From an uncultured Gammaproteobacteria bacterium (lineage in GTDB: Bacteria > Pseudomonadota > Gammaproteobacteria > Steroidobacterales > Steroidobacteraceae), in the NCBI GenBank assembly GCA_963710595.1, contig CAVQAZ010000007.1, positions 36,926 to 100,925 on the forward strand: a stretch of DNA of 64,000 nucleotides, in the 5' to 3' direction. Below are positions 1 through 22,277 of the stretch, in pieces; positions within the stretch are counted from its first letter, which is position 1, and every line of letters begins with the position of its first letter. Below the pieces are notes generated by a model. That model had not been told where the DNA came from, searched no databases, and saw only the letters and a list, made by a program, of their open reading frames with translations. The position numbers and the translations under genes are program-made.

Positions 1-3000
1 TTGCCCTCCTCAGTGGCCGACGCAGACATCAACGGCACACCCGACACCGCGGGTTGCTCGATCCAGTACCGCTCGCGTGCAAACGGATAGGTCGGCAGGT
101 TGATGCGGCTGAACGCATGCCCAACAAACAAGCCTTCGAAGTCGAGGCGCCAACCTTCAACAAACAGCGCGGCAATCGTTGCCAGATTTTCCAGATACAC
201 CGCCGAATCCGTCAGCTGCGCACACTCCTTGATGCATTGATTTCCCAAGCGCTTGAACGTGGCGGGTTGCTGCCGCTGCGCGTCCGGCTTGGAAACATGG
301 ACCCGCGGCGCTTCACCTCGCACGAGCCATTGCTTCAGCGATTCAAGCAGGTGTTCGGTGCTGGCGGCGACACACGCCAATCGCTGGTTGAAATGCTTTC
401 TGCCGAGCAACAGGGTGTAGCTGATATCGCCGCAATCGATCGGCCCGGCGCTTTCACAATGTGCCACCAGTTGCTCGACTTGCTCACGCAACTGTCCGGA
501 ACTGCGCGCCGACAGCACTACCAGATAACCAGGCTTATTCGCCGGCATCCGTCGTACGGGCGGTGCCTCCGCGATGACCAGATGCGCATTGGTACCGCTC
601 AGGCCGAAAGAACTGACCGCCGCCGCGCGGCCCGTGTCGGACTGCGGCCACTCGCGCAACGTCGTGTTGACGTAAAAGGGGCTGTTCGTGATGTCGATGC
701 GCGAATTCGTCGTTTCATAGTGCAGCGATGCTGGGATTCGCTGGTGCTGCAGCGACAGCAGTACTTTGATCACGCTGGCCACACCGGCGGCGGCGGCGGT
801 GTGCCCCAGATTGGTCTTGATCGAGCCCAGTGCGCAGAAACCTTTCTTCGCGGTGTCCCCACGAAACACCCGCGACAACGCCTCGAACTCGATAGGATCG
901 CCCAGCTTGGTGCCGGTGCCGTGCGCCTCCATCATCTGAATTTCTTCGGCATGGATGCCGAACGTCGTGTAGATCTGCCGCTGCAATTCCTCCTGGGCAG
1001 CGGCGCTCGGCGCGGTAATGCCGTTGGTGGCACCGTCCTGGTTGATGCCCGAGCCGCGAATCACGCCATAGATATGATCGCTGTCGGCCAACGCATCGGT
1101 CAGCCGCCTGAGAACCAGCACCCCGACGCCTTCCCCCGGCACGAAGCCGTCGGCGCGATCGTCGAACGCGTAACAGCGCCCGCTCGGTGACAGCATGCCG
1201 GCTTGATTGCACATCTGATAGAAATCCGGCGTGCATTGAAGAAACACGCCACCGGCGAGCGCCATGTCCGTCTCGCGGGTGCGCAAGCTCTGACATGCCA
1301 GATGGATGGCTACCAGCGAGCTCGAGCAAGCCGTGTCCACGGCAACCGCCGGGCCGCGCAAATCCAGGTAGTAAGCGATGCGCGCGGGAATGAATGCAGC
1401 GGAAGTCCCCCACAACGCGTTCGCTGGACGCTCGTTGGACAGGAGCTGCGAATAGTCCCAGCTGCCGGTGTTGTGCCCCACATAGATGCCGCAGCGTCGT
1501 CCCTCGCTCGCGGCGCCGGCGCGCCCCGCATCCTCCAGCGCCTTCCAGGCTTCCTGAAGAAACAAACGCTGCTGTGGGTCCATGTATGTGGCTTCGGCGC
1601 CGGAGATCCCAAAGAAGCGCGGGTCGAAGCAATCGATGTCCCGCAAGAAGCCACCCACCCGGCAGTATCCTTTGGACCTGTCGCTGGCACGCGGCAAGCA
1701 CTCCGATGGTTCCCAGCGCGACGCTTCTTCGGTGAGGTCCGTAGCGGTGGCCAGGCAATGCCACAGCTCCTGAACCGTGCTGGCGCTGCCGAACTGGCCG
1801 CTCATGCCGACGATTGCGATGGCGTCTTGCGCCGTCGAGTCGCTGTTGCTGAGTTCCTGCATGGTGCGTGACGCGACATTCTCGATCGCATCTGCGCGCC
1901 GTGCCAACGGCTGCTCGATGTGAGCTGCCGCAAAGCGCTCACAGACATGCCGGGCGAGTTTTCGTATGCAGCCATGATCGAAAAGACTCGTGGTCGTGAG
2001 CTCGATCGCCAGCGCCCGGTTGATTAATGCAACCACGCGAATCCCACGCAGCGAGTCCAACCCGAAGTCCGCGAACGGCTGATCCGCATCCAAGGACGTC
2101 TCCGGAAGGTTCATCACTTCGGCGAACTTCGCGGTCAGCACAGCCGCCACTCGTTCCTCCGTGCGCTCGCGATCAACCTCTGAACGCGCTTCGGTTCGCT
2201 CATCCTGCAGCCCGCCGTCGCCGCTCTCGCCGCTGGTGTCAGCCGTGGCACCCTTGCCGGCCAGCTCGCGCATCGTTTTCTCCCGTATTACATACTTCTG
2301 GATCTTCCCGTTGACCGTCATGGGAAACTCATCCACGAAGCGGATACGGCGTGGAATCTTTGCGTCGGCGATCCGGCCGCGGCAGAAATGAATGATTTCC
2401 TCGGCGGTGGCCCGCTGCGACTGTCGCAACTTGATCCATGCGCAGACATCTTCGCCATACAACGGATCGTCGACGCCGAACACGGCGACCTGCTCGATCT
2501 TGGGATGCTCGAACAGGAACTCCTCCACTTCGCGCGGATAGATGTTTTCTCCACCGCGAATGATCATGTCGTTGAGCCGTCCCACGACCCGCACGTAGCC
2601 CGCCTCATCCATCACGCCCACATCGTTGGTATGCATCCAGCCGCCGCGATCGATCGCGGCAGCCGTCGCCTGCGGATCGTCCCAATACCCGGCCATCACC
2701 GAATAGCCGCGCACCAGGATTTCGCCTTGCTCGCCCAGCGGTACAGTGCGGCCCTCGGCATCCACCAGCTTGGCTTCCAGATGCGGCCCCACGCGGCCGA
2801 CCGTGCTGACTCGCTGCTCCAACGTGTCGGCCGGGCAGGTCTGAAAGCTGATCGGGGAGGTCTCGGTCATGCCGAAGGCGATGGTGATGTCTCGCAGATG
2901 CATCTGCGTCGTGAGTCGCTTCATCAGTTCCGTCGGGCACGGCGCGCCGCCGATATAGCCGGTGCGCAGCGATGTCAGATCCCGGCGTGGAAAATCTGGA

Positions 3001-3926
3001 TCTTCCAGCATGCCGATGAACATGGAAGGTACGCCGCCGATCGCCGTGCAGCGCTCCTGCTCGACAGTCTGTATCGCCAGCTTCGCATCGTAGCTTTCGC
3101 TGGGATAAATCATCGTCGCGCCATGAGTGACGCAGTCCAGGTTCCCGAGCACCATCGCCCCGCAGTGGTAGAGCGGCAAGAGAATGCAGAATCTGTCCTG
3201 AGGCGTAATGCCCATCGCCTCGCCGACGAAGAACGCATTGTTGATCAGCCCACGATGCGTCAGTGTCGCGCCCTTCGGACGACCTGTGGTTCCCGAGGTG
3301 AACAGGATGCTGATCGGGTCCTCGCACTGCAGCCCGCTGCTCAGGTTGTGCAGAGCCGCCAGTTCCGCGGCCGTGGCGGGCACCAGCAGTTCATCGAAGT
3401 TGAGCATGCCGGATGACTTTTCCAGGCCCAAACGGACCACGATCTGCAGCTGCGGCAAAAGATCCGCACCGCGTTGGTCGGACGCCGTCGTGAAGCGCTC
3501 AGGCGCGAGGGTTTGGAGCGTCGCGATGTGGTCGCAATGCCGGAAACCCGGAGAGAGAATGAGCGCCTTGCAGGCGGCCTTGCCCAGCGCGTGCCGCACT
3601 TCCTCGGCGCCGCCCGCTGGATTGATCGTCACCAGCACCAGGCCGACCTTGGCGGTGGCGAACTGCGTCACGACCCATTCAGCGCAGTTCTGCGCCCAGA
3701 TGCCGATGCGCTCGCCCGGTTTCAGTCCCAGCCGCATCAATGCGACCGCGAGTGTGTCCACCCGCTCGGCCAGTTCCCGATAGGTCCAGCGAATGTTCTG
3801 ATGCCGCGCCAGCAGTGCTTCGTTGTCTGGATGAGACTGCGCGATCCGATCGAACATCGCTCCGATGGTATCGATGCACAGCGGCGTGCTGGAAACACCG
3901 TGCTGATAACTCAATCTGGTTCGCAT
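1..3926 (-). CDS. trans-AT type I PKS, N-terminal part: acyl-CoA-ligase-like loading domain - ACP - KS - flanking subdomain; continues past the left window edge
   Basis: Hand-translated; absent from the ORF track because it has no stop in the window. ATG at 3926 (MRTRLSYQHG) with AAGGA upstream. Motifs checked share one frame: FTSGTTGRPKG (~3290), GLDS ACP motif (~2055), KS DTACSSS (Cys codon 1326-1328), and LPTYPFARERYWI near the edge. EAHGTGT and NLGH are also present. No AT domain follows the KS. Confidence 0.92.
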   Translation of the reverse strand, partial: MRTRLSYQHGVSSTPLCIDTIGAMFDRIAQSHPDNEALLARHQNIRWTYRELAERVDTLAVALMRLGLKPGERIGIWAQNCAEWVVTQFATAKVGLVLVTINPAGGAEEVRHALGKAACKALILSPGFRHCDHIATLQTLAPERFTTASDQRGADLLPQLQIVVRLGLEKSSGMLNFDELLVPATAAELAALHNLSSGLQCEDPISILFTSGTTGRPKGATLTHRGLINNAFFVGEAMGITPQDRFCILLPLYHCGAMVLGNLDCVTHGATMIYPSESYDAKLAIQTVEQERCTAIGGVPSMFIGMLEDPDFPRRDLTSLRTGYIGGAPCPTELMKRLTTQMHLRDITIAFGMTETSPISFQTCPADTLEQRVSTVGRVGPHLEAKLVDAEGRTVPLGEQGEILVRGYSVMAGYWDDPQATAAAIDRGGWMHTNDVGVMDEAGYVRVVGRLNDMIIRGGENIYPREVEEFLFEHPKIEQVAVFGVDDPLYGEDVCAWIKLRQSQRATAEEIIHFCRGRIADAKIPRRIRFVDEFPMTVNGKIQKYVIREKTMRELAGKGATADTSGESGDGGLQDERTEARSEVDRERTEERVAAVLTAKFAEVMNLPETSLDADQPFADFGLDSLRGIRVVALINRALAIELTTTSLFDHGCIRKLARHVCERFAAAHIEQPLARRADAIENVASRTMQELSNSDSTAQDAIAIVGMSGQFGSASTVQELWHCLATATDLTEEASRWEPSECLPRASDRSKGYCRVGGFLRDIDCFDPRFFGISGAEATYMDPQQRLFLQEAWKALEDAGRAGAASEGRRCGIYVGHNTGSWDYSQLLSNERPANALWGTSAAFIPARIAYYLDLRGPAVAVDTACSSSLVAIHLACQSLRTRETDMALAGGVFLQCTPDFYQMCNQAGMLSPSGRCYAFDDRADGFVPGEGVGVLVLRRLTDALADSDHIYGVIRGSGINQDGATNGITAPSAAAQEELQRQIYTTFGIHAEEIQMMEAHGTGTKLGDPIEFEALSRVFRGDTAKKGFCALGSIKTNLGHTAAAAGVASVIKVLLSLQHQRIPASLHYETTNSRIDITNSPFYVNTTLREWPQSDTGRAAAVSSFGLSGTNAHLVIAEAPPVRRMPANKPGYLVVLSARSSGQLREQVEQLVAHCESAGPIDCGDISYTLLLGRKHFNQRLACVAASTEHLLESLKQWLVRGEAPRVHVSKPDAQRQQPATFKRLGNQCIKECAQLTDSAVYLENLATIAALFVEGWRLDFEGLFVGHAFSRINLPTYPFARERYWIEQPAVSGVPLMSASATEEG

Positions 3927-3952
3927 GCAATGTCGTCCTTGATCACTGGGCA

Positions 3953-5230
3953 CTATGCTTGGCCGCCGTGGCTCGCAGGAGCGTGCTTGGGCTCGTCGTC
4001 CGGTACATACTCCGAACCGAATGCGTAGTAGCGCTGCCGCTGCTCGGGCGTGAGGCCCTCGAGCCGCTCCACCGTGTCCAGGAACCATCGTGTCCTGGGA
4101 TTTTCGGCGCGGTAGCCCTTTTTGAAATCCACGCCCGATACATAGGTGTTAGCTACGAAGCCAAACGGGCGCAGGCTGCCGAAGTGATGCGCTACATGCT
4201 GGTTGCATGTTTCCACGCTGGCGAGCCTGCTGAAGGGAAACACACCGGGAATGTATTGGTGGCCCATCATGTCGCTGATGCAGCCGCCGAACCAATAGAA
4301 CTGCGCGACCAGCACGCTGTCGAGAAAATCCAGCCAGGTGATGACTCGATCGGCGCTTTCCAGAAAACCGGTGCCGCCCGCCGCTCCGATCATGGCCGAC
4401 GGAATGGCATCGTGGTGATGTCCGTGGAACACGGTGAAGAAAAATCGCGAGCTGTGGTCCTTCTCGTGGTTCTCCTCGAACAGACGAAAGTGAGCGAACC
4501 GTCGCCATGGCGTGCCGTCGCCGCCGCGCTCGCGGGAGACATAGCTGCCGGTCAGCGCGGCCACGACACACCAGAGCACATAGCCGCCGAGCAGGAGGAC
4601 TTCGCGGAGGACCGAAGGGTTGGTCAATTTATAGAAGATCACGCAGGGCGCGAGCATGCACAGATGCGCGATCAGACCGGTGATGAACGCATGAACGATG
4701 TGCGTCCGGATCGACACACCGGCGAAGTTCTGCCGGATCGGCGAATCCTCGAGCACCTCGCGCACCCGATCCGCCCGCAACAGGTGTGCAATCAACACGC
4801 TGATGCGGAATGCAGTGATGAGGGCAAAGGGAATCCAGACGATCCACCACCACGGCAACGGCGCCAGCCAAGAGGTTCCGCTCAGCGTGGGACGTAGCGC
4901 CGCCTCCACCACCAGCGCAAGCGCGAATATGCTGACCGCCTGAAAAACCCTCGCGCGGATCGACCACCAGCTGCGAACGACCGCGGCGGGATAGCGCGCC
5001 ATGCCCACCAGAAAAACTCGGAGCGATTTCGGGTCGACGCTCCAGCCATGCTTCCTTGGAAACAGCCAGGCCAGATAGAGGAGCGCCGCGCACAACGTCG
5101 AATGGAACGCCGGATGGTCCAGGACCGGCCAGATCACCGCGCCGGTCAGCACCAGCGAGCAGAGATAGAGCAGAAAGTCTTCGCCTCGATAGCGCAGAAA
5201 GAACTTCTGGCGGGCATTGTGCGTGATCAT
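3953..5230 (-). CDS. Membrane diiron His-box enzyme, fatty acid hydroxylase/sterol desaturase-like (425 aa)
   Basis: C-terminal part of track ORF 3953..6124. The start is reset to MITHNARQ (ATG 5230, GGAGG upstream). Several hydrophobic helices and His boxes HEKDH, HGHHH and HVAHH. Confidence 0.7.
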   Translation of the reverse strand: MITHNARQKFFLRYRGEDFLLYLCSLVLTGAVIWPVLDHPAFHSTLCAALLYLAWLFPRKHGWSVDPKSLRVFLVGMARYPAAVVRSWWSIRARVFQAVSIFALALVVEAALRPTLSGTSWLAPLPWWWIVWIPFALITAFRISVLIAHLLRADRVREVLEDSPIRQNFAGVSIRTHIVHAFITGLIAHLCMLAPCVIFYKLTNPSVLREVLLLGGYVLWCVVAALTGSYVSRERGGDGTPWRRFAHFRLFEENHEKDHSSRFFFTVFHGHHHDAIPSAMIGAAGGTGFLESADRVITWLDFLDSVLVAQFYWFGGCISDMMGHQYIPGVFPFSRLASVETCNQHVAHHFGSLRPFGFVANTYVSGVDFKKGYRAENPRTRWFLDTVERLEGLTPEQRQRYYAFGSEYVPDDEPKHAPASHGGQA

Positions 5231-5256
5231 CTTTAGCCAACCTCCGTGCGACCTGG

Positions 5257-5366
5257 GGAAGCTCTGATTAATCGACTTCCCTGAGCTCAGCAAGTTTGCA
5301 ACTGATTGAAATGCTTCATCGATCGAAGTTGATATGCACGACGAATGGCAATTGATCAGAGATTCC
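5257..5366. mobile_element. 110-bp MITE-like inverted-repeat element, copy 1
   Basis: 105/110 nt identical to 13943-14052. Terminal inverted repeats GGAAGCTCTGATTAAT / ATTGATCAGAGATTCC (14/16). Flanks CTGG and CTAC are each one mismatch from CTAG. Confidence 0.6.
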
Positions 5367-5484
5367 CTACGACAGAAGCTGCTGCTGTATTCAGCCGGTC
5401 GTTGCGTAAACACGCTACTGGATAAATCCACTCGCCTGGCGTGCACGGCTGATGTCGCCGTCTCGGACATGCGCACGGTGCGCG

Positions 5485-6234
5485 CTATTTTCCGAACAAC
5501 GCCTTGATCCGATCCTTCACTTCCGGCTGATGAAAAGTCTGCGCGTGCATCGCCACTTCCAGCTCGGTGGCGCGCGGCAGATCCGCCCGCAGGCCGGCGA
5601 CCATGTGCGCCTTGAGCGTCACCAATGACTGTCGCGGCTTGTCCGCCAGATTCCTCGCGAGCTGATATGCGTACGGCAGTACCTCGCTCCGCGGCAGCAC
5701 CGGAAACGCAATTCCCCGCTCCGCCAGCTGCGCGCCCCGGTAGGTCTCGGCTGTCATCAACAGCTCCTGCGCCAGCGGCAACCCCAGCTTTTCCCGCAGC
5801 ACCAGCGTGGACCCGAAACCCGGCGTGAAGCCGTACTTCATGAAGTTCGTCGTGTAGACACTTTCTCGGCTGAAGATGATGAAGTCGGCAAACAAGCCGA
5901 ACACGAAGCCGCCGCCGATGCCATGACCCTGCATTGCCGCGATCACCGGCACCTCGCAGGCCAGCGGCAGGTTGTAAATGGGATAGTCGGTGAACTTTCC
6001 CTGACCATCGGACAACCCCAGCAACGCCTCCTGCGTGCCACCGGAGCAGAAATACGAGTCGTAGCCGGTGACGATCACGACTTTGCAGTGCTGGTCCCCG
6101 GCGATATTGGCAAAGGCATCCCACAGGCCCGCGCAGATCTCCGCAGAGAATGTGTTCTTGTGGACGCGATCTTCCAATGTGACCTGGACGATGGCCGGCT
6201 CGATTCGCTCGTGACGTACCGCCGGGGTGACCAT
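5485..6234 (-). CDS. pksI: Beta-branching enoyl-CoA hydratase-like decarboxylase ECH2 (PksI-like)
   Basis: Crotonase-fold motifs (EDRVHKNTFS, AMQGHGIGGG, FMKYGFTPGFG); last gene of the HMGS-ECH1-ECH2 run. Confidence 0.9.
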   Translation of the reverse strand: MVTPAVRHERIEPAIVQVTLEDRVHKNTFSAEICAGLWDAFANIAGDQHCKVVIVTGYDSYFCSGGTQEALLGLSDGQGKFTDYPIYNLPLACEVPVIAAMQGHGIGGGFVFGLFADFIIFSRESVYTTNFMKYGFTPGFGSTLVLREKLGLPLAQELLMTAETYRGAQLAERGIAFPVLPRSEVLPYAYQLARNLADKPRQSLVTLKAHMVAGLRADLPRATELEVAMHAQTFHQPEVKDRIKALFGK

Positions 6235-6235
6235 G

Positions 6236-7033
6236 CTAGGTGCGCTCCCAAGGAAACAGACCCGTCTCTACGTAGCGTGTGATGCTGGCGATGTTGGCAG
6301 GATCGCGGAACACTTCCTTGTTGGCCGCGATGGCCGCCGGCCGGTCGGCGACGACCGAGACGCCGAGCCCGTTCACGAGACGTTTGTAGCGCGCGATGGC
6401 CGTTCTGTTGAGCCGTCTCAGCCGGAGCAGATGCTTGCGCAACAGCGCTTCGCTGTTGGCGCCGCTCGCATCCACCAGTCCCCACTGCAGCGCCTGTGAT
6501 ACATCGATGGCATGCGTCATTGCCGTCAGGTAATGCGCCTTCTGAAAACCGACGCGGCGAATCAGGAACGGCAACACGCACGCCGGCACTAGTCCGAACA
6601 GCAGCTCCGAGAGACTGAACACCGCCGTCTCATCCGCGATCACAATGTCGCTCGCAGCGACGAAGCCCATCCCGCCCGCGTTCGTCTTGCCTCGCACATG
6701 CGAGACCACGAAGAACGGTGCCGTCGTCAGACGCAGCCACAAGTCATAAAGAGGTTCCGGTGATGGCTCAGACGCCGGCTGGCCGCCGCCGTTGTTGGCA
6801 ACCGCACGCATTTCCCCGAAATCGGCGCCGAAGCAGAACACGTCCGGCAGGCCCTCCAGCACCAGCACGGTGACGGGCTCATCACAACAACGCTCGATCA
6901 CGGCGGCGCACTCACTGATCAGCTGGCCGTTGATCGTGTTGTTCGCCTCGGGACGATGCAACTGCACGAAGCAGATGCTGTCCTGGAACCGCACCTGCAG
7001 CGTTTCGTAGGTCGTCTGTCGAACCGTGGCCAT
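6236..7033 (-). CDS. pksH: Beta-branching enoyl-CoA hydratase/dehydratase ECH1 (PksH-like)
   Basis: Start reset to ATG 7033 (MATVRQTTYETL), which overlaps the HMGS stop (TGATG). Motifs HRPEANNTIN, FCFGADF, LSELLFGLVPA. Confidence 0.9.
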   Translation of the reverse strand: MATVRQTTYETLQVRFQDSICFVQLHRPEANNTINGQLISECAAVIERCCDEPVTVLVLEGLPDVFCFGADFGEMRAVANNGGGQPASEPSPEPLYDLWLRLTTAPFFVVSHVRGKTNAGGMGFVAASDIVIADETAVFSLSELLFGLVPACVLPFLIRRVGFQKAHYLTAMTHAIDVSQALQWGLVDASGANSEALLRKHLLRLRRLNRTAIARYKRLVNGLGVSVVADRPAAIAANKEVFRDPANIASITRYVETGLFPWERT

Positions 7034-8295
7034 CACGACAACCACTCGTACTCGCGATGGAACTCTTTGATCTCGCGCAGTACCAGCCGCGGTCTGTTCT
7101 TGCCGGCGCGCGCGACCTCGCGACACACCTCGTCTTCCACCTTGACGTTGCGGGTGCCGAACCGCAGCTGGCTGTTGCTCATCAACAAGGAGTCGTATTG
7201 CTGCATCGACAAGGGATAGCGTTCATCGAGTTGCTGCCCGATCTTGCGCCGACGTAGCGCCAACTGCCCCTCCTGATGCGCCACGCCGCTATAAAACTCC
7301 GAGCAGCAGCCCGAGCCGTAGGAGAAACATCCGATGCGGTTGGCGGATTGAAAGTTGCCGTTGTCGATGGTGCTCGCCAGCGACAGCAATGAGGTCGCCC
7401 CCATGATGTTGCCCACCCTGCGGCAATAGGTGAGTCCCGGCACCACGCGCTGGTGAAAATCCGCTTCGATCTCCGCGGGCTTCGCCGCCGTCCACTTGCG
7501 CATCATCGAGCGGTGAGCGCCCTTGATCATGCCGCCGAACGGAGTGTGAAACGCCAGGTACTGAAATGACGTGGCGTAGTCGACGTCACTGACTCTCTTG
7601 CTGTATTCCTGGAACGCATTCTCACAACAGTCGAGGTACGACAGCAGCGACAAATCCGCATCGCCCGCCTCCATGTCCGGCGCCGGACGGCAGGTGTCCA
7701 TCACCTCGTAGCCGTAGTAGCCATTTGCACCGACATCCATTTCGAACACCAGCGGCCGACTGCTAACGAGCACCGCGACAGCGCCGGCGCCCGCACTGGG
7801 CTCCGCGAATGACCAGTCTTGCGTCAACGCGTCGCCGCCCTCGGCGACCATGAAGCGCGAAATATCCGTCGCGACCACCAATGCCTTGGCACCGGGAGAG
7901 ACTTGCGACAGGATGAAGTTCACCGCCATCTGCAAACCCGCAGTTCCGGAGTAGCAGGCTTGTTTTATTTCGAACAGGCGGCAATTGCGATTCAGTTGCA
8001 AGTGGCGGTGCAGGTAAGTGCTGATGGACTTGCCGAAGTCGATGCCGGACTCCGAGCACGCAATGAGCAGCTCGATCCGATCTTTGTCGGCCGGCGGCAG
8101 CGCATCGAGGATGGGCTTCGCGGCATTGACGCCGAAGGTGATCGGGTCCTCATCGGGCAGGGCCACCGTCTTCTCATCCATCAACAGGTTATTGAACCGA
8201 ATCGTGTCCAGTCCGCGATGCTCAGCCAGCTGCCTGACGTTCAAGCAGGCCACGCCGCCGAACACATTCATTGCCTCGATGCCCACGAGTGCCAT
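7033..8295 (-). CDS. pksG: HMG-CoA synthase-like beta-branching enzyme (PksG-like)
   Basis: EIKQACYSGT (catalytic Cys), FHTPFGGM, FSYGSGCCSEFYSG. Confidence 0.93.
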   Translation of the reverse strand: MALVGIEAMNVFGGVACLNVRQLAEHRGLDTIRFNNLLMDEKTVALPDEDPITFGVNAAKPILDALPPADKDRIELLIACSESGIDFGKSISTYLHRHLQLNRNCRLFEIKQACYSGTAGLQMAVNFILSQVSPGAKALVVATDISRFMVAEGGDALTQDWSFAEPSAGAGAVAVLVSSRPLVFEMDVGANGYYGYEVMDTCRPAPDMEAGDADLSLLSYLDCCENAFQEYSKRVSDVDYATSFQYLAFHTPFGGMIKGAHRSMMRKWTAAKPAEIEADFHQRVVPGLTYCRRVGNIMGATSLLSLASTIDNGNFQSANRIGCFSYGSGCCSEFYSGVAHQEGQLALRRRKIGQQLDERYPLSMQQYDSLLMSNSQLRFGTRNVKVEDEVCREVARAGKNRPRLVLREIKEFHREYEWLS

Positions 8296-8661: not shown

Positions 8662-8910
8662 TCACGAGCCGCGCAGTCTTTCGTGCAGCAGATCGGTCAA
8701 TTCGCCGAGATTGCGGGCGCCGAACAGCTCGACGCGGGGAATACGCAGCGCCAGCGACTCCAGCGTCATCGTGACGATCTCCGCACGATCGACTGAATTG
8801 GCACCGAGTGCGGCCAGTTGATCGGAAGGTTTGAAAGAATGGTCCTGCAGCTGTGGCAGCACTTCGCGCGCGTGACCCACGATGACGGCGAATAATGCTT
8901 CTTTGTTCAT
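8662..8910 (-). CDS. acpK: Donor acyl carrier protein for beta-branching (AcpK-like), copy 1
   Basis: 82 aa from MNKEALF; LGANSVDRAEI motif. Confidence 0.88.
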   Translation of the reverse strand: MNKEALFAVIVGHAREVLPQLQDHSFKPSDQLAALGANSVDRAEIVTMTLESLALRIPRVELFGARNLGELTDLLHERLRGS

Positions 8911-8946
8911 GATGCTTCGGCTCCTTGCTGATGCCATGGAATCTCA

Positions 8947-11651: not shown

Positions 11652-11655
11652 TGAT

Positions 11656-13755: not shown

Positions 13756-13942
13756 TGCTTCACCTCGTGTTCGAAGGCGCAACGAGCTCCGAGCTTAATC
13801 AGCTACCTCGGAGTGAAGCGCTGGATTTCTCCATACCACCGCAGCGGCCGGTCACCCAAAAACCCGACAGCAACAGCACCAACACTGCCTCGATCAATAC
13901 CGATGCGTCCAGCTCGCGCCGGTGTCAAAGCAACAAGCCTAG

Positions 13943-14052
13943 GGAAGCTCTGATTAATCGACTGCCCTGAGCTCAGCAAGCTTGCAACTGACTGAAATGC
14001 TTCATCGATCGAAGTTGATATGCGCGACGCATGGCAATTGATCAGAGATTCC
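13943..14052. mobile_element. 110-bp MITE-like inverted-repeat element, copy 2
   Basis: Same terminal inverted repeats as copy 1, flanked by a perfect CTAG direct repeat (13939-13942 and 14053-14056). The right CTAG contains the stop codon of the ParB-like gene. Confidence 0.65.
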
Positions 14053-14943
14053 CTAGGATGCCGTGTCGATATTTCTGCGGCGGTGCGCCGCCTGCGTCGT
14101 GATGTTTGCATGCAGCACCGACTGGCCATCGAGAATCTTCGCCACTTCGTGCTGAATGCGCTCCTGAACTTCATCGGTGGCCACTTCTATGGGCAGGGTC
14201 ATGGCTATCAAACTGCGGTGCTGCCTGATCCGCAGGATGGGTACTCCGCCCTCGCTCCTGATGACCCGTTCGGCAGCCTGTAATTTCTTTTTGCGGCCCC
14301 GGCGCGCCGGGGTCAGCAGCTGGCGAAAGACCTCACCGGCGGCCGGACGCGGCCTCGCTCCAATCTCGCGCGCGCGTTGAATAATGGACTTTCTGCGACC
14401 CGGGTCTTGAATGGCGTCGTCGATATCCAGGCCCCATCGTTCACAAATGTCGGTACCGCTTTCGAACGCGCCGACGATGACGCTCGGCAGACGCGCGAGC
14501 CTGATCAGGCGCGACACCTGCGATGTGGAAATCTTCAATGCCTTGGCGATGTCCTCCTGCGAGCTGAAGTGGCCGGCCCGCAGCCAACGCGCATAACACA
14601 TGCCTCGCTCGTAAGGGCTCAGGTCCTTGCGTTTGTGATTCTCCGTATCGAGCGCGATCACCGCCTCCTTGTCCGACAGATCGCGCAATTCGGCCAGCAG
14701 CGGTCGGTTCAGAAAACGCGCGACGAACAGCCGGCGCGCGCCATAAATCAACTCGATGTCGTGCTCCGGATCGTTCTGCAAGCGCCGCCCGAGCACAGGA
14801 ATAAGCTGCCCGTGTTCAAGAAAGCTCTTGATCTCATCCTCGCAGGTTGCTTCATTGACGCTGCTGTCGATCCGATCGTGGCCCTTCCAGAGGCGACAGC
14901 GCACAGGGTTCACCGAAACAATCGTCCGATTCTCATCGACCAT
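14053..14943 (-). CDS. ParB/RepB/Spo0J-like protein 1
   Basis: GQLIPVLGR, YGARRLFVA and ENHKRKDL motifs of the ParB N-terminal domain, then HTH SQEDIAKALKISTSQVSRL. Confidence 0.85.
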   Translation of the reverse strand: MVDENRTIVSVNPVRCRLWKGHDRIDSSVNEATCEDEIKSFLEHGQLIPVLGRRLQNDPEHDIELIYGARRLFVARFLNRPLLAELRDLSDKEAVIALDTENHKRKDLSPYERGMCYARWLRAGHFSSQEDIAKALKISTSQVSRLIRLARLPSVIVGAFESGTDICERWGLDIDDAIQDPGRRKSIIQRAREIGARPRPAAGEVFRQLLTPARRGRKKKLQAAERVIRSEGGVPILRIRQHRSLIAMTLPIEVATDEVQERIQHEVAKILDGQSVLHANITTQAAHRRRNIDTAS

Positions 14944-15099: not shown

Positions 15100-15987
15100 T
15101 CAGGTTTGTAAACCGGAGTAGTAGGACGACGATGCGTTGGGGTGATCGATATATCGGGCTGTGCGCCGCGTGCTCAGGTCCCGCACGATGCGCAGGACGG
15201 CATCCTCAATTCGCTCGAGCGCTTCTTCTGATACTCTGTCGGCGGGAAACAGCAGAGTGAACGCGCGAGACTGGCGCCTGACTCGAAACAGCGCGCTTCC
15301 GCTCGCACCGGTGACGGTTTCTTCGCACGATCTGCCGCTGCGCCGTCGATCCCACGCGACGCTCTGCAGGAGTCTTTGGTAAATCTCGAGCACCGGAGGG
15401 CGTGGAGTCATCCCGCGGATTTCATTCGCGACGCGGCTGAGCAGCGGGCGCTTCTCAACGTCTTCCCACATCTCCACCAACTCCAGTCCCCATCTTTCAC
15501 GCATGTCGGCCGGATTGGCGAATGCGCTCACGATGCTGCTCGGCAGCTGGGCGAGTCGCAGTAGTCTCGACACTTGCGAGTTGGAGAGATGTAAGGCACG
15601 CGCCAAATCTTCCCGTGACTTGAAGTATTCCGCGCTCAACCATCGAGCGCAGCTGCGCCCCCGCTCATAGGGGCTGATGTCCCGGCGCTGGCGGTTCTCG
15701 ATATCCATCGCGATGATCCCGTCGCGATCGGAGATGTCCTGCAGCTCAACCGCGAGCGGCATGTTGAGATGCCGTGCAACGAACAGGCGACGCGCACCAT
15801 AGATCAGCTCGACCTCATACACGGGATCGCCTTTCAAGCGCCGCCCCCGAGTTGGAATCAGTTGCCCCTCCTTGAGGAAGCTTTCGATCTCGACCTTGCA
15901 GGTTTCCTCGGTGATCTCCGTGTCAAGCCGCTCGTGCAAATCCCACATACGGCATCGAAACGGGTTCACCAGACTGAGCTCGCTCAT
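15100..15987 (-). CDS. ParB/RepB/Spo0J-like protein 2
   Basis: Start reset to MSELSLVNPF (AAGGAG upstream). GQLIPTRGR, YGARRLFVA, ENRQRRDI, then HTH SREDLARALHLSNSQVSRL. Confidence 0.85.
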   Translation of the reverse strand: MSELSLVNPFRCRMWDLHERLDTEITEETCKVEIESFLKEGQLIPTRGRRLKGDPVYEVELIYGARRLFVARHLNMPLAVELQDISDRDGIIAMDIENRQRRDISPYERGRSCARWLSAEYFKSREDLARALHLSNSQVSRLLRLAQLPSSIVSAFANPADMRERWGLELVEMWEDVEKRPLLSRVANEIRGMTPRPPVLEIYQRLLQSVAWDRRRSGRSCEETVTGASGSALFRVRRQSRAFTLLFPADRVSEEALERIEDAVLRIVRDLSTRRTARYIDHPNASSSYYSGLQT

Positions 15988-16331
15988 TTCAAACTCTCCT
16001 TTTTCGCAACCCCGGCCGCCTCCCGCAGCCGAGCCTTCCGCAGCATGCTGTGTTTTGACCCCCGCTCTCGCCACTCGCTCACTTCAGCTTTTTTTAAACA
16101 AGCAATGCGCCGCCTGCCCTACGCCGACATTCAGAAACATCTGCTCATGCGCATAGCGACATCTTTTTGTTCCATGCACACCGTCAAATCCGCAACAATG
16201 CATGAAGGCGGTCAACACCCATCCGGGCACCGAATCCAACATCTTGGCACGATACGTCTGCCACGCGTACGACACGCGAGACCCGGGACTGAATCGTCGC
16301 ACCCCATTGGATAGATCCGCCGTCACTGTGA

Positions 16332-17573
16332 CTAGTCATCAATGGACACGTTGCGCAGACAAATCGCGGTGTTGATGCCGCCAAAACCTATGCTCAGGTT
16401 CAGGGCGTTGCGAATCGTGCGCGCCAGCGGCTCTTGCCGCACCCAATTCAGCTCCGGCTTGAGGGGTTCCTGCAGATTTCGACTGGGATGCAGGAACCGG
16501 CTCCTCATCTGCAGCAACGTGGCGATGATCTCAACGGTGCCGGCGGCGCTGAATCCATGGCCCACGATCGACTTGGTCGCGTTGATATGCGCATGCGACA
16601 GCCCGGCGGCCATGATCGCGCTCGCCTCAATCTCATCGCCCATCCAGGAGCCGGTGCCGTGTGGATTGACATAGTCGATGTCGCGGGGCTCGAGCCCTGC
16701 GCGTCTCAAGGCGTTGTCAATCACCCTGATTTCACCGGCGAGCGACGGATCGGGGTTGCGATGTGCATCCATCACCGTCGCTGAGCCGGTCAGCACCGCG
16801 TACGGCTTGACGCGATTCCTGCTGACGGCCGACAGGCGTTCCACCACCACGGCGCCACAGCACTCACCAAAAATGAAGCCATCCCGTCCCTTGTCGAAAG
16901 GCCGGCAAGCCAACTCCGGACGATCCGCGTAGCGATCGCTTCCCATCGCACCTGTCGCGCGCAGAGCGTGGCACTCCCAGTACGACAGATCCATGAGGGC
17001 GCCGACGGCGATACAGACGTCTACTTGTTGTGATTGCACGGCTTGGACGGCCTGCAGTATGGATAGCTGACCACTTGCGCATGCCGCACCGACGGTGTAC
17101 GCGAAGCCGCGTATGTTGAACTGTTCCGTGCACCAACCGCACAGATCACTATCCAGGAAGGCAACCCCATAGCTGGGCCGCAGGAAGCGCATGCGCGCTG
17201 AGTGCTCCTCATGAATTCGCGTGAGCTCGCGCTGTTGACAGTTCGACCCGCCGATAATGAGGCCGATTCGATACGGATCGACGGAGTCGAGGTTGGCGTC
17301 CTGCCAAGCCTCATGCACAGTCATCATCGCCGCCTGCGCGGACAGCGAAGCTGAGCGCTGCGCGCGTGATGAAAGCGCTGCCGGCAACTTGAGCTCCGGC
17401 AACTCGGCGCCGATGAATGCGGAATCCTTCTGCCTTCCGGGACGCTGCATGACGCGAAAAGCATGGCGCCCTTCCTTGAGCGCCGCTTCGAATGCTCGAC
17501 GGCCCTGACCCACCGCGGTGAGTACACCGACGCCAGTGATCGCTACATCAGTAGAAGCGTCTTTCCTCTCCAT
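16332..17573 (-). CDS. Stand-alone KS of the beta-branching (PksF-like) family, retaining the active-site Cys
   Basis: YTVGAACASGQ (TGC at 17079-17081), NPHGTGS, KSIVGH; clear paralog of 19860..21074. Confidence 0.88.
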   Translation of the reverse strand: MERKDASTDVAITGVGVLTAVGQGRRAFEAALKEGRHAFRVMQRPGRQKDSAFIGAELPELKLPAALSSRAQRSASLSAQAAMMTVHEAWQDANLDSVDPYRIGLIIGGSNCQQRELTRIHEEHSARMRFLRPSYGVAFLDSDLCGWCTEQFNIRGFAYTVGAACASGQLSILQAVQAVQSQQVDVCIAVGALMDLSYWECHALRATGAMGSDRYADRPELACRPFDKGRDGFIFGECCGAVVVERLSAVSRNRVKPYAVLTGSATVMDAHRNPDPSLAGEIRVIDNALRRAGLEPRDIDYVNPHGTGSWMGDEIEASAIMAAGLSHAHINATKSIVGHGFSAAGTVEIIATLLQMRSRFLHPSRNLQEPLKPELNWVRQEPLARTIRNALNLSIGFGGINTAICLRNVSIDD

Positions 17574-17716: not shown

Positions 17717-18907
17717 CTACTCCAGAACTTTCGACACCACACCCGCACCCACGGTCTTGCCGCCTTCGCGAATCGCAAAACGCGATCCGTCCTCCATCGC
17801 GATCGGCGCGATCAACTCGACCGCCATCTTGACGTTGTCGCCGGGCATCACCATTTCCACGCCCTCCGGCAGCTCCACCGCGCCGGTTACATCCGTGGTA
17901 CGGAAGTAGAACTGCGGGCGATAGCCTTTGAAGAACGGCGTGTGGCGCCCACCCTCCTCCTTGGTCAGCACATACACTTCGGCCTCGAACTTCGTGTGCG
18001 GCTTGATCGAACCGGGCTTCGCCAGCACCTGCCCACGCTCGACCTCTTCGCGTTTGGTACCGCGCAGAAGTACGCCCACGTTGTCGCCCGCCTGACCTTC
18101 ATCCAGCAGCTTGCGGAACATCTCAACGCCCGTGCATATGGTCTTCGTCGTGGGCCGCAACCCCACGATCTCCACCTCGTCGTTCACCTTGAGAATGCCG
18201 CGCTCGATACGTCCGGTGGCAACCGTGCCCCGCCCGGAAATGGAGAACACATCCTCAACGTGCATTAGAAACGGCTTGTCGATCTCACGCGGCGGCGTGG
18301 GAATATAACGGTCCATTTCCTGCACCAGCTTGACCACCGAGGGCACGCCGATTTCGCTCGTGTCGCCTTCCAGCGCCTTGAGCGCCGAGCCCTTCACGAT
18401 CGGCGTCGCGTCGCCAGGGAAGTCGTACTTCGACAGCAGCTCGCGCACTTCCATATCCACCAGTTCCAGCAGCTCCGCGTCGTCCACCATGTCCGCCTTG
18501 TTCAGGTACACCACGATGTACGGCACGCCCACCTGGCGAGCCAGCAAAATGTGCTCGCGCGTCTGCGGCATCGGGCCGTCAGCTGCGGAAACCACTAGAA
18601 TCGCTCCATCCATCTGCGCGGCGCCCGTGATCATGTTCTTCACATAGTCGGCATGCCCCGGACAGTCGACATGCGCGTAGTGGCGGTTCGCACTCTGGTA
18701 CTCCACGTGCGCCGTAGCGATCGTGATCCCGCGCGCTTTCTCTTCCGGCGCCTTGTCGATCTGATCGTAGGCCATGAATGTACCGCCGTGCGTCTCGGCC
18801 ATGACCTTGGTCAAGGCCGCGGTCAACGTCGTCTTGCCGTGATCCACGTGTCCGATCGTGCCGACGTTCACGTGCGGCTTGGTGCGCTCAAACTTGTTCT
18901 TCGCCAT
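17717..18907 (-). CDS. tuf: Elongation factor Tu, paralog outside its normal genomic context
   Basis: 396 aa, [28 protein letters not shown]; full length and no frameshift. No fusA/rps or tRNA/secE neighbours. Confidence 0.98.
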
Positions 18908-19415: not shown

Positions 19416-19445
19416 CGTACCAACCCTCATTGGGATGAAAACGGA

Positions 19446-19496
19446 CCTATTTATACCTATCGCTCCCTATTAGTCAATAGCACTGGGAGCGATAGG
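19446..19496 (-). promoter_or_regulatory. Sigma70-like promoter with overlapping operator repeats for the HTH-tuf unit
   Basis: Minus strand TTGACT (19477-19472), 16 nt, TATAAA (19455-19450). Perfect 12-bp inverted repeat CCTATCGCTCCC (19456-19467) / GGGAGCGATAGG (19485-19496). CCTAT at 19446, 19456 and 19466. Confidence 0.7.
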
Positions 19497-19624
19497 GAAT
19501 TTAAAGGAGTTGACGCTGGACGATTGCGGGGACGTGGCCGCTTGGAAAGAGCGTGGTCAAGAGGCGGTCCCCGCGTGCTCCAGACTGCAGGCCGCGCTGT
19601 GTGTTCAGCGGCGCCCCGCGGGGC

Positions 19625-19843
19625 TCACGGCCTTACTTTGGAGGCGGCCAGGAGTGCGAAGCGCACATTGGCCCGCATCCAGCGAATCAGAACAAGTTTG
19701 TCGATGCCGAGTCGCTCCGCGAGCTCAGCCACCGTGCATGCGCAGCCATCAGGGAGATCGCGCACAGCTGCCTCTATCGACGCTTGCGGAGGATCGGGAA
19801 CTGGCTCATTTCCAGCCAATGTATCCATGGATGCCATGTACAC
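19625..19843 (-). CDS. Small hypothetical protein with possible HTH
   Basis: Directly after the KS stop, AAGGGAG upstream of ATG 19837; TVAELAERLGIDKLVLIRW looks HTH-like. Confidence 0.4.
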   Translation of the reverse strand: MYMASMDTLAGNEPVPDPPQASIEAAVRDLPDGCACTVAELAERLGIDKLVLIRWMRANVRFALLAASKVRP

Positions 19844-19859
19844 GTACTCCCTTACGGTA

Positions 19860-21074
19860 CTAGTACTTTTGTAGACACAGCGCTGTGTTTATTCCACCAA
19901 ATCCCATGCTGAGCGTTAGTGCATTCACCATCGGATGCGCGACGGGTTGCTCTCGCACCCAGTTGAACGATGGATCAATGGGGTGATCGAGGTTGCGCGT
20001 GGCATGTAATCGGCCCGCCCGCATCTGCAGTAGCGTCGCGATCACTTCGACAGCGCCGGCAGCCGACAACCCATGCCCGATGATCGACTTGGTCGCATTC
20101 AAACGAGCCTGCGTGAGCTGTGTGGCACGCAGCGCGCTCAGCTCGGTTTCATCACCCACGACCGATCCCGTCCCGTGCGGATTGACGTAGTCGATGTCCT
20201 TCGACGCGCATCCCGCTCGCCGCAGCGCGCTGACGATCACCTTGATCTCCCCTTCCAACGAGGGATTCGGGTTGCGATTCGCATCGATGGCGACACCCCA
20301 CCCGGAGACGCGCGCGTAGGGAGTCATGCCGGAGCGCGGGCGCGCGTCGGCCCTCTCGATCACGACAGCGCCACAACACTCTCCATAAATGAAACCGTCA
20401 TGGTCCCGATCGAAAGGCCGCGAAGCGTGCTGCGGCTCACTCGCGTAGCGGTCTGAACCCATGGCGCCGAGGGAGCGAAATCCCTGGCATTCCCAATGAG
20501 ACAGATCCATCAGCGCTCCGAGAGCGATGCAGATATCGACCTGCTCGCACAACACCGCTTGCATCGCCTGGATGATGGCGAGTTGCCCGCTCGCCGAAGC
20601 TCCCCCCACGGTGTAGGCCAGCCCCTGGATGCCGAACTGCTCGGTGCACAAACCGCACAGGTCCGTGTCCATGAACGACAGGCCGTAGGTCGGACGCAGG
20701 AACTGCGTTCGTTCCGAGTACGCCTCGTATGTTTGCACCTGGCTGCGCTGCTGAAGGTTCGAACCGCCGATGATCAATCCGATCCGCGTCGGGTCCGCAT
20801 CACTCAGGCGCGCGTCACTCCATGCCTCGTGCAGCGTGACCAACCCCGCCTGCGCTGTGAGCGACGCATTTCTGAGGTGCTGCGGCGAAATGCCCGGAGG
20901 CATGCCCATTGACGGAATCTCCGCGCCGAGAAAGTTCGAAGCTTTTTGCCTTCCCGGCCGCTGCATGACACCGAATGCATTGGGCGCTTCGAACAGCGCT
21001 CGCGAGAACGCCTGCGCTCCTTGCCCGATCGCCGAGGTGACGCCGACGCCGGTAATAATCACTTCAGGCCGCAT
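19860..21074 (-). CDS. pksF: Beta-branching decarboxylating KS (Cys to Ser), PksF-like
   Basis: YTVGGASASGQ (TCG at 20595-20597), NPHGTGS, KSIIGH. Start at ATG 21074 or GTG 21086, overlapping the ACP end. Confidence 0.9.
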   Translation of the reverse strand: MRPEVIITGVGVTSAIGQGAQAFSRALFEAPNAFGVMQRPGRQKASNFLGAEIPSMGMPPGISPQHLRNASLTAQAGLVTLHEAWSDARLSDADPTRIGLIIGGSNLQQRSQVQTYEAYSERTQFLRPTYGLSFMDTDLCGLCTEQFGIQGLAYTVGGASASGQLAIIQAMQAVLCEQVDICIALGALMDLSHWECQGFRSLGAMGSDRYASEPQHASRPFDRDHDGFIYGECCGAVVIERADARPRSGMTPYARVSGWGVAIDANRNPNPSLEGEIKVIVSALRRAGCASKDIDYVNPHGTGSVVGDETELSALRATQLTQARLNATKSIIGHGLSAAGAVEVIATLLQMRAGRLHATRNLDHPIDPSFNWVREQPVAHPMVNALTLSMGFGGINTALCLQKY

Positions 21075-21312
21075 GGAACTTTTCACGCAGCAGATCCGCC
21101 AGTCCGCCGATGCTTTCCGGCCCGAACGCCTCGTGGCGGGGCATGTCGAGCGACAGCTCCCCTAGCACCAGCGTGATGATCTCGGCGCGATCGACGGAGT
21201 CGGCGCCGAGCGACTGCAGCCGGTCGCTGTCGATGAAAGCATGATATTGCAAATCCGGCACGACCTCCTGGGTGTACCGGACAATCAGCTCGAAGATGTT
21301 TTGTCTGTTCAT
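21064..21312 (-). CDS. acpK: Donor acyl carrier protein (AcpK-like), copy 2
   Basis: 82 aa from MNRQNIFELI; LGADSVDRAEI motif. Confidence 0.88.
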   Translation of the reverse strand: MNRQNIFELIVRYTQEVVPDLQYHAFIDSDRLQSLGADSVDRAEIITLVLGELSLDMPRHEAFGPESIGGLADLLREKFHAA

Positions 21313-21374
21313 GGCTGTGCTCAAGCTCCGGAAGACCACTGTTGATACTCACGCCCAGTTCGAGCCCCTCGGGA

Positions 21375-22277
21375 CTAGTTCCCGGATGTGCGCAGTTCTC
21401 GAGCCGCCGCCGGTTCCGCATCCTGCCGGATCTGCTGCACCAGACGCGTCAGCACGTTTCCCGGACCAATCTCCTTGAACTCCGTCACGCCGCGCGCGAG
21501 CAAAAAGCGAATGGTTCGTGTCCATTGCACCGGGCTCTTGATCTGATCGGCGAGCCCGGCCTTGATCGCGGACGAGTGATCGCTCGGATAGGGCGCAGCG
21601 TTCACGTTTGCAATCACCGGGACCCGCGCCGCTGAGAAAGGTATCGGCGCGATGAATTCATTGAACGTTTGCGCCACATCGCTCATGTACCGGGAGTGAA
21701 ACGCGGCGCTCACCTGCAACGGCATGTACATGCTCGCGCCGGCTTCCTCGAACAACGGAGCCGAGCGTTGGATGTCTGGCACCGGCCCGGAGATCACGAT
21801 CTGCTTGGGCGCATTGAAGTTCGCCACGTCAACGCCGCTCAGGCGATTCTCCGCGAGCACTCGCGCGACCTGGTCGGCATCCAACCCGACTACCGCCGCC
21901 ATGGCGCCGTTTCTCATTCGCGCCATGAGCTCGCCGCGTTTGATCACCAGGCGCAACCCGGTGAGAAAATCGAAGACTCCCGCCACGAGCAACGCGTTGT
22001 ATTCGCCGAGACTGTGTCCCGCGACGTAGCTGGGATGCGCGCCCTGACTCAATGCTTTGTAGTAGTACAGCGCGTTGACCACATAGAGACTGGGCTGAGT
22101 ATGTTGAGTCTGCTTCAGCTTGTTGTCCGGATCTTCCAGACAGAGTTTGCGCATCGAGTATCCCAACAGCTCATCGACGCTCTTCTCCACAGAGGTGAAC
22201 TCGCGCACCTCGTCAAACAATTGCTGACCCATGCCTCGATATTGAGAACCCTGGCCCGGGAACAAAAACGCGATCAC
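21375..22277 (-). CDS. Trans-acting malonyl-CoA:ACP acyltransferase (FabD/PksC-like)
   Basis: GTG 22277 after AAAGGAGG; FPGQGSQ, GHSLGE, AFHS (malonyl-type). Confidence 0.92.
   Translation of the reverse strand: MIAFLFPGQGSQYRGMGQQLFDEVREFTSVEKSVDELLGYSMRKLCLEDPDNKLKQTQHTQPSLYVVNALYYYKALSQGAHPSYVAGHSLGEYNALLVAGVFDFLTGLRLVIKRGELMARMRNGAMAAVVGLDADQVARVLAENRLSGVDVANFNAPKQIVISGPVPDIQRSAPLFEEAGASMYMPLQVSAAFHSRYMSDVAQTFNEFIAPIPFSAARVPVIANVNAAPYPSDHSSAIKAGLADQIKSPVQWTRTIRFLLARGVTEFKEIGPGNVLTRLVQQIRQDAEPAAARELRTSGN

Follow-up and report, generated by a model that had tools for sequence, protein, structure and literature searches.

A divergent third tuf gene within a trans-acyltransferase polyketide cluster of Steroidobacter as a probable target-duplication immunity gene

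INTRODUCTION

Target duplication is already well established as a route to self-resistance. Among the trans-acyltransferase (trans-AT) polyketide synthase (PKS) clusters that use it, those for mupirocin, kalimantacin, and thailandamide carry mupM for IleRS, batG for FabI, and a resistant AccA, respectively. Here, we describe tuf3, a third and divergent gene for elongation factor EF-Tu that lies inside a trans-AT PKS biosynthetic gene cluster (BGC) of an uncultured Steroidobacter strain. The gene was found in a 64,000-nt stretch of DNA (referred to here as the window; positions 36,926 to 100,925 of the forward strand of contig CAVQAZ010000007.1 in assembly GCA_963710595.1). We consider it probable that tuf3 is the target-duplication immunity gene of this cluster, and we infer from our analysis that the product of the cluster inhibits EF-Tu. 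By description, the locus resembles those of mupM, batG, and the resistant AccA in having an extra, diverged copy of an essential gene in the cluster with ARTS-style duplication, colocalization, and incongruent phylogeny, and it differs from them in its target protein, EF-Tu. EF-Tu is a validated, clinically unexploited antibacterial target, and to our knowledge its natural inhibitors come almost entirely from actinomycetes, with Burkholderia and Frateuria added for enacyloxin.

In Planobispora rosea, a resistant EF-Tu gene (tufR) adjoins the cluster for the thiopeptide GE2270A, an inhibitor that blocks aminoacyl-tRNA (aa-tRNA) binding (PMC3943966). Both loci place a producer-encoded EF-Tu variant beside biosynthetic genes. 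In the GE2270A case, however, the resistant gene is the housekeeping tuf of an rpsL-rpsG-fusA-tuf operon and the product is a peptide that is ribosomally synthesized and then posttranslationally modified, whereas tuf3 is an additional third copy in a trans-AT PKS operon of a gammaproteobacterium and is wild type at G257 and G275. Pulvomycin from Streptomyces is a β-branched, conjugated polyketide made with a 3-hydroxy-3-methylglutaryl (HMG)-CoA synthase (HCS) cassette and blocks ternary-complex formation (PMC13014233); it sits at the junction of the three EF-Tu domains, and GE2270A sits on domain 2 (PMC9529903). The cluster described here likewise combines a trans-AT-type assembly line with an HMG-CoA synthase (HMGS, or HCS) cassette, and the mode of action that we predict is the same. 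In contrast to pulvomycin, the producer belongs to a different phylum, and R230, R333, and T334 are unchanged in tuf3. Relative to the pulvomycin cluster, known to us by description and not by sequence, this cluster adds a CoA-ligase loader, E1/E2 genes, a His-box enzyme, ParB-like genes, and a second ketosynthase (KS) and acyl carrier protein (ACP).

Kirromycin-family Streptomyces strains presumably represent another case of a divergent additional tuf (tuf3-type) in a producer of an EF-Tu-targeting polyketide. In silico work likewise counts EF-Tu among the putative self-resistance genes of type I PKS clusters (bioRxiv 10.1101/2020.06.01.128595). Inhibitors that trap EF-Tu, such as kirromycin, make sensitivity dominant, so that an added copy beside two sensitive ones would not protect the cell, whereas blockers of the ternary complex require one resistant copy only (PMC6685928). 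Our locus further differs from the kirromycin case in that tuf3 has the wild-type residues at positions 120, 124, 160, 316, 329, 375, and 378 and in that the 41 kb of PKS that we examined showed neither nonribosomal peptide synthetase nor pyridone-forming parts.

RESULTS

tuf3 is an old and divergent third copy of tuf

tuf3 is an intact open reading frame (ORF) of 396 aa whose product scored 755.7 bits against the TIGR00485 equivalog model (cut-off of 522.4), matched all three Pfam EF-Tu domains (GTP_EFTU, D2, and D3), and contained intact G motifs, including SALKA, and the catalytic His. For the loci discussed below, L denotes metagenome loci, X public sequencing runs, G genomes, and C contigs of the host genome (G000); type A and type B denote relatives. 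The 7.9-Mb Steroidobacter genome contains three tuf genes, and relatives contain one or two copies of the housekeeping type. Both housekeeping copies are on contig C6, one behind fusA and the other in a tRNA-Tyr/Gly/Thr-tuf-tRNA-Trp arrangement, and they are 99.6% identical at the DNA level. tuf3, in contrast, is 90% identical to the housekeeping copies in amino acids and 82.6% identical in nucleotides, with 133 codons differing synonymously and 40 nonsynonymously. This gap in identity indicates that the duplication is old and that tuf3 escapes the gene conversion that homogenizes the housekeeping pair. The original prediction had described a tuf without tRNA, fusA, or secE neighbors, which we confirmed, and had named as evidence against immunity that this tuf might be the only one in the genome or nearly identical to the housekeeping copy; neither was the case. 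Its further claim of codons atypical for a highly expressed gene held only mildly, as the GC content at third codon positions was 0.816 for tuf3 and 0.859 for the housekeeping tuf and rare codons were slightly more frequent in tuf3 (GGA four times, CTA twice, and ATA once), but tuf3 keeps a stronger bias than the neighboring PKS genes (0.70 to 0.75).

In a maximum-likelihood tree, tuf3 nested within the Steroidobacter tuf genes and not as the sister of the copy from its own genome (SH-aLRT of 91 to 92, moderate support), with a terminal branch of 0.12 relative to a median of 0.007 (17 times the median). Substitutions E3N, E203P, P213H, V227A, V236L, and L372S of tuf3 (E. coli EF-Tu numbering) were never seen in the 120 closest database relatives, and P213, V227, and L372 are otherwise 95 to 100% invariant in this set. 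No full-length protein more than 92% identical to tuf3 was found among 5.8 billion proteins, because short-read contigs break inside tuf. We recovered tuf3 orthologs via the neighboring genes for KS2 and a helix-turn-helix (HTH) protein and via contigs from sequencing runs.

The tRNA-linked housekeeping tuf (C6:372120-373300) lacks 1 nt of a TTT run near codon 39, and the chromosomal paralogs of the E1/E2 genes of the cluster (C9:1563579-1566965) read in several frames with in-frame stops. Both are probably homopolymer errors of long-read sequencing. Were the tuf deletion real, a single intact housekeeping tuf would be left in the strain.

tuf3 is embedded in a conserved gene order

As originally predicted, tuf3 lies in a co-oriented PKS cluster between two free-standing, paralogous KS genes, whose products KS1 and KS2 are 62% identical. 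The HTH gene is located 64 nt upstream of tuf3. We observed the same arrangement on metagenome contigs, where AT, ACP, KS1, a small ORF in some cases, and the HTH gene are followed by a tuf3-type N terminus (MAKN/SKFERT...AET). The upstream half of this order, AT-ACP-KS1-HTH-tuf3, is present in L107 (82% nucleotide identity) and in L108 to L111 (73% nucleotide identity, upstream half only). The downstream half is represented by L127 to L130 (about 81% nucleotide identity), in which an 87% identical KS2 ortholog directly follows a tuf C terminus with DGSRFA, retaining S372 in this lineage, and the order runs from the tuf3 C terminus through KS2 and two ParB genes to E1. Thus, the full order AT-ACP-KS-HTH-tuf3-KS-ParB-ParB-E1 was seen piecewise in the more distant lineages. 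In the type A relative (about 96% identical; run X7), two contigs of 17.8 kb and 36 kb are colinear with positions 57 to 22917 of the window, with similarity ending at about 22917, and tuf3 is bracketed on both sides by biosynthetic genes. Of the 18 codons that differ in the C-terminal half of the type A tuf3, 17 do so synonymously, and every hallmark residue is conserved.

The HTH gene provided a second measure of this association. Its orthologs (72 to 96% identity) were always followed by a tuf3 N terminus, whereas homologs of 40 to 55% identity (mostly from actinomycetes, others from family f9) had no tuf nearby. Neither a close HTH homolog nor the HTH-tuf3 cassette was found in any of 400 other genomes sampled across the order. 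From the recurrent synteny and this absence, judged on sequence, tuf3 and the HTH gene form a stable and specific component of this cluster family. Because the cassette is missing from those 400 genomes and is always attached in metagenomes to PKS genes or their scars, gene order also argues that tuf3 is not a resident gene beside which the cluster chanced to land. tuf3 therefore combines the features by which target duplication is recognized, being an extra copy of an essential gene that resides and is conserved within a BGC and that has an incongruent and accelerated phylogeny.

tuf3 is retained in relatives that have lost the cluster

Type B relatives, detected in runs X37, X31, and X34, represent a strain about 96% identical to ours in which the PKS genes are gone and tuf3 is intact. 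Read depth was zero over positions 1 to 14273 of the window, and the type B contigs join position 14468 to 17179 and position 19240 to 22695, the latter through 455 nt of other sequence. The losses include the PKS, the His-box gene, both enoyl-CoA hydratase (ECH) genes, HMGS, the enoylreductase (ER), E1/E2, ParB1, most of KS2, KS1, ACP1, and the AT. Still present are a 195-nt fragment of ParB2, roughly the first 130 codons of KS2, tuf3, and most of the HTH gene. The KS2 and ParB2 scars indicate that the cluster was ancestral in type B and was deleted later, and at least three separate deletions left tuf3 untouched. The type B tuf3 has no indel and no stop, its hallmark residues are unchanged, and 27 of its 31 changed codons are synonymous. 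The gene is thus under strong purifying selection both with and without its cluster, an indirect sign that its product may support translation.

These findings bear on whether tuf3 is a decaying hitchhiker duplicate without present function. Its codon bias, slightly relaxed relative to that of the housekeeping tuf, speaks in favor of decay. The intact frame, the preponderance of synonymous changes in both types of relatives, and conservation across lineages down to 73% nucleotide identity make this reading highly improbable.

The original prediction had also named the presence of this tuf at the same site in relatives lacking the cluster as evidence against it. Type B does keep tuf3, but the KS2 and ParB2 scars mark a loss of the cluster. 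In a third arrangement, found in L104 and L105 (93% nucleotide identity), an MCP gene lies directly beside the HTH-tuf3 unit. We also found that two large Steroidobacter genomes, G011 and G013, carry other divergent third tuf genes outside any BGC (Table 1). We considered these as tuf3 orthologs and rejected them, since they are not in BGCs and, at 75 to 77% identity to tuf3, group together in a separate clade with long branches. They may represent orphan variants of EF-Tu, and they indicate that extra EF-Tu genes in the genus need not be linked to a BGC.

Several points weigh against tuf3 as an immunity gene of the cluster. Its persistence in cluster-less strains could mean that it has a value unrelated to this product, and G011 and G013 provide precedents for a third tuf away from any cluster. 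tuf3 is also wild type at L120, Q124, Y160, R230, G257, G275, G316, Q329, R333, T334, A375, and E378, all of them identical to E. coli EF-Tu and to the housekeeping copy, and we take these to be the published resistance sites for kirromycin, enacyloxin, pulvomycin, and GE2270. With no known resistance position altered, H213, A227, and S372 would be the candidate resistance residues. Furthermore, E1/E2 are duplicated housekeeping genes in the cluster as well, and the PKS may be incomplete or misassembled at its contig end, given its near-identical module repeats and the lack of a visible thioesterase (both described below).

Some of these points would be expected if tuf3 were a stand-alone accessory EF-Tu, serving either as orphan immunity against an inhibitor made by another organism or as a stress or spare factor, with the polyketide having another target. 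The intact type B gene, the L104 and L105 units lacking AT-ACP-KS1, the orphan genes of G011 and G013, and the unchanged classic resistance positions are all compatible with this explanation. We nevertheless find it unlikely, because the KS2 and ParB2 fragments beside the type B gene reveal an ancestral cluster, because biosynthetic genes bracket tuf3 on both sides in type A and on one side each in L107 and L108 to L111 (upstream) and in L127 to L130 (downstream), and because the cassette was absent from the 400 other genomes of the order. Retention of tuf3 in type B fits the behavior of an immunity gene that would still be useful among producing kin.

Candidate resistance residues and predicted mode of action

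If tuf3 provides immunity, the assembly line, which is primed by a CoA ligase and has 10 or more KS-containing modules, would make a β-branched polyketide that binds bacterial EF-Tu. The housekeeping EF-Tu copies, with P213, V227, and L372, would be sensitive, and EF-Tu3, with H213, A227, and S372 plus P203 and L236, would stay functional with the compound present. P213H and V227A would flank residues 215 to 230, which we take to be one wall of the aminoacyl/GE2270 pocket. L372S is three residues from A375, presumably a kirromycin position.

That a third copy accompanies two housekeeping copies without alterations, considered with the dominance of sensitivity to EF-Tu-trapping inhibitors, argues for a pulvomycin/GE2270-type action. 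The compound would then block the EF-Tu·GTP·aa-tRNA complex instead of trapping EF-Tu on the ribosome as in the kirromycin type.

We propose that tuf3 would be cotranscribed with the small HTH protein gene from a promoter of its own that overlaps a palindromic operator and that the HTH protein would control the cassette. A promoter-like site is present upstream of the HTH gene (Table 1), and its -35 hexamer is flanked by the two arms of a perfect inverted repeat of 12 bp, CCTATCGCTCCC / GGGAGCGATAGG; a consensus promoter scan yielded no site, this one included. The HTH_17 protein is likely the regulator of the HTH-tuf3 cassette. A search of RNA runs returned only soil metatranscriptomes with 5 to 6% of words, which has no bearing on expression.

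The spacer upstream of the HTH promoter (19477-19602) has differing sequences in different relatives, and L104 (about 93% nucleotide identity) is without positions 19513 to 23476 and a whole 20-kb stretch (25280-45966). This neighborhood is a rearrangement hot spot.

Organization of the cluster and its assembly line

The cluster forms one minus-strand gene run from the AT to the PKS, and this run occupies the left third of the window. The original prediction had listed CoA-ligase loading, doubled branching parts, E1/E2, and a His-box enzyme, and each of these was found; the genes encode a CoA-ligase loading module, two ACPs, two KSs, HMGS, two ECHs, a trans-ER, a fused E1, an E2, and a His-box membrane protein. 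The β-branching set is complete, consisting of a donor ACP, a KS with a Cys-to-Ser exchange, HMGS, ECH1, and ECH2. A 723-aa ORF at positions 3953 to 6124 proved to be a miscall that covers both ECH2 and the His-box gene, and the His-box protein had no Pfam or NCBIfam match. The 72-aa ORF between KS1 and the HTH gene contains a helix-turn-helix-like stretch, TVAELAERLGIDKLVLIRWMR.

Table 1. Coordinates of the cluster features in the window and of the third tuf genes in two other Steroidobacter genomes
Feature	Position	Strand	Basis
Free-standing trans-acyltransferase (AT), first cluster gene	21375..22316	-	Pfam Acyl_transf_1, E=2e-39; also first cluster gene in L107 and L108-111
Donor ACP 1, β-branching cassette	21064..21339	-	PP-binding match; GADSVD motif
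KS1, PksF-type malonyl-ACP decarboxylase, active-site Cys to Ser (GGASASGQ)	19860..21086	-	NCBIfam NF005490, 623 bits
Small ORF, ~72 aa, between KS1 and HTH gene	19625..19843	-	ORF list; 70-aa gene at same place in L108-111
Promoter-like TTGACT-16-TATAAA, putative operator of HTH-tuf3 unit	19440..19500	-	Read by eye from sequence
HTH_17/excisionase-family (Rv2175c-like) DNA-binding protein, 147 aa	18972..19415	-	Pfam HTH_17, NCBIfam 'excise'
tuf3, third divergent EF-Tu gene, proposed immunity copy	17717..18907	-	TIGR00485, Pfam EF-Tu domains
KS2, PksF-type, active-site Cys retained (GAACASGQ)	16332..17573	-	NF005490, 611 bits
ParB/RepB-like protein 1	15100..16074	-	SoPB_HTH and TIGR00180 matches; conserved in L127
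ParB/RepB-like protein 2, 47% identical to protein 1	14053..14943	-	Profile matches; conserved in L127
MITE-like 121-bp element, copy 2	13938..14058	.	Type A relative skips 13933-14056
Fused E1 alpha/beta 2-oxoacid dehydrogenase	11656..13782	-	Pfam E1_dh, Transket_pyr, Transketolase_C
E2 lipoyl acyltransferase	10410..11819	-	Pfam 2-oxoacid_dh, Biotin_lipoyl, E3_binding
PfaD-family trans-enoylreductase (trans-ER)	8947..10332	-	TIGR02814, 687 bits
Donor ACP 2	8662..8937	-	PP-binding match
HMG-CoA-synthase-like β-branching enzyme (HMGS)	7033..8295	-	HMG_CoA_synt_N, HMG_CoA_synt_C
ECH1, enoyl-CoA hydratase family	6236..7126	-	ECH_1, E=4e-55
ECH2, hidden under miscalled ORF	5485..6234	-	ECH_1, E=4.5e-59
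MITE-like 121-bp element, copy 1; not part of function	5252..5372	.	Type A relative skips 5251-5366
His-box membrane protein, 425 aa, motifs HEKDH, HGHHHD, HVAHH	3953..5230	-	Translation
N terminus of 9009-aa trans-AT PKS (CoA-ligase, ACP, KS onwards)	3..3926	-	AMP-binding, PP-binding, KS; likely start 3926
G011 third tuf (L022)	C48:323721-324896 (G011)		Among GH43, sulfatase, and TonB-receptor genes
G013 third tuf (L023)	C3:99601-100782 (G013)		Among GST, MFS, and exosortase genes

Because E1 and E2 are also duplicated housekeeping genes, they could represent the actual immunity copy, with the product hitting a 2-oxoacid dehydrogenase complex and tuf3 being incidental. They are diverged duplicates of a chromosomal pair on C9 (73 to 82% identity for E1 and 60% for E2) that is conserved across the Steroidobacteraceae, and they are syntenic in related clusters. 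When we scanned the genome collection with E1, only the chromosomal Steroidobacteraceae paralogs were found and no related clusters; the names of these E1 relatives assign the host to Steroidobacter. Unlike tuf3, however, the E1/E2 duplicates were lost along with the PKS in type B, as expected of biosynthetic genes that supply a precursor or branch donor. Along with the genes for the ER, ACP2, HMGS, ECH1, and ECH2, they are also part of a single co-oriented run, and E1/E2-type enzymes are known from other pathways to provide carrier proteins with acyl or hydroxyethyl units. We consequently regard immunity through E1/E2 as improbable.

An even less probable alternative is that tuf3 moonlights in biosynthesis or regulation, by presenting aa-tRNA to an enzyme or acting as a chaperone, and does not confer resistance. 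Its place in an operon-like gene run is the one feature that points in this direction. No tRNA-dependent enzyme family was seen among the cluster genes, tuf3 was kept after the pathway was deleted, and the canonical EF-Tu motifs and equivalog score are retained. An immunity function of tuf3 is our preferred explanation.

Most of the assembly line was predicted to lie outside the window. Its remainder, which may be incomplete at the contig end, extends leftward for 37 kb on the same contig (C7, 115 kb), and the line comprises proteins of 9,009, 2,248, and 1,910 aa. The PKS contains at least 10 KS domains plus ketoreductase, dehydratase (DH), and methyltransferase domains. Consistent with a trans-AT system, no Acyl_transf_1 match for an integrated AT was obtained in about 13,000 aa of PKS, and RhiE-like KS-MAT linker remnants are present. 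Three 3.4-kb copies of a KS-linker-DH unit (C7:1-3549, 4273-7659, and 25884-29705) are 95 to 98% identical, and a further pair of 1.5 kb (C7:10625-12155 and 14531-16062) is 98% identical. C7 begins inside one of the 3.4-kb repeats, with frameshifted DH fragments there. A KS-linker forms the end of the last PKS gene, no thioesterase was seen in the PKS on C7, and no continuation of the PKS was found at any other contig end of the genome. These repeats would stem either from modules recently duplicated or converted or from an artifact of assembly.

Other multimodular PKS loci are found in the genome at C9:978-1080 kb, C1:190-212 kb, C4, and C6:1087-1107 kb. The one on C9 covers about 100 kb and has over 20 KS domains. 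None of these loci is accompanied by an extra tuf.

Because the cluster contains an HTH_17 "excisionase" and a ParB pair, we considered that these genes might be parts of an integrative and conjugative element or a plasmid and rejected this reading, as the genes are syntenic in related clusters. No integrase, ParA, or replication gene was present among the ORFs of window positions 1 to 31000. Direct repeats of 40 nt or more were limited to the two miniature inverted-repeat transposable element (MITE)-like copies, and the distant HTH homologs are ordinary regulators, which also counts against a mobile element.

The ParB/RepB-like pair (14053-16074) occupies the same position in L127 (1777-3692), from a lineage of about 80% nucleotide identity, and no parA was found near it. 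Given the conserved position without ParA, the ParB-like proteins may be cluster regulators instead of partition proteins. The 121-bp MITE-like copies are upstream of the His-box gene and of E1, and about 27 to 33 copies occur genome-wide. The type A relative (96% identical) lacks the two copies found in the cluster, which are therefore recent insertions.

DISCUSSION

A third tuf that has diverged from an almost uniform housekeeping pair, that lies at a fixed place among β-branching genes across lineages, and that outlasted those genes in type B is most simply viewed, in our judgment, as the probable immunity gene of the cluster. Our literature search found no paper tying Steroidobacter to such a compound. 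What is new here relative to described cases of target duplication is the host genus, the gene set (CoA-ligase loader, doubled KS and ACP, E1/E2, His-box enzyme, and ParB-like pair), the nonclassical set of substitutions, and the putative polymorphism between producers and immune nonproducers.

A bolder reading, which we offer only tentatively, is that the cluster makes a structurally new EF-Tu inhibitor of Gram-negative origin with a binding site outlined by H213, A227, and S372, unlike the four known elfamycin sites, and that types A and B represent a polymorphism of producers and immune cheaters. This outline would presumably correspond to the edge of the acceptor pocket in domain 2 plus domain 3.

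These findings make the cluster a prioritized lead for a new elfamycin-type compound from Steroidobacter, a barely explored soil genus. tuf3 would serve as a ready-made resistance marker for confirming the target, and P213H, V227A, and L372S provide testable hypotheses on the binding site of the compound. The type B siblings, in which the pathway was lost and the tuf kept, amount to a natural experiment in how antibiotic immunity plays out ecologically. If the proposed roles are true, a polymorphism of producers and immune cheaters would be visible directly in public sequencing runs.

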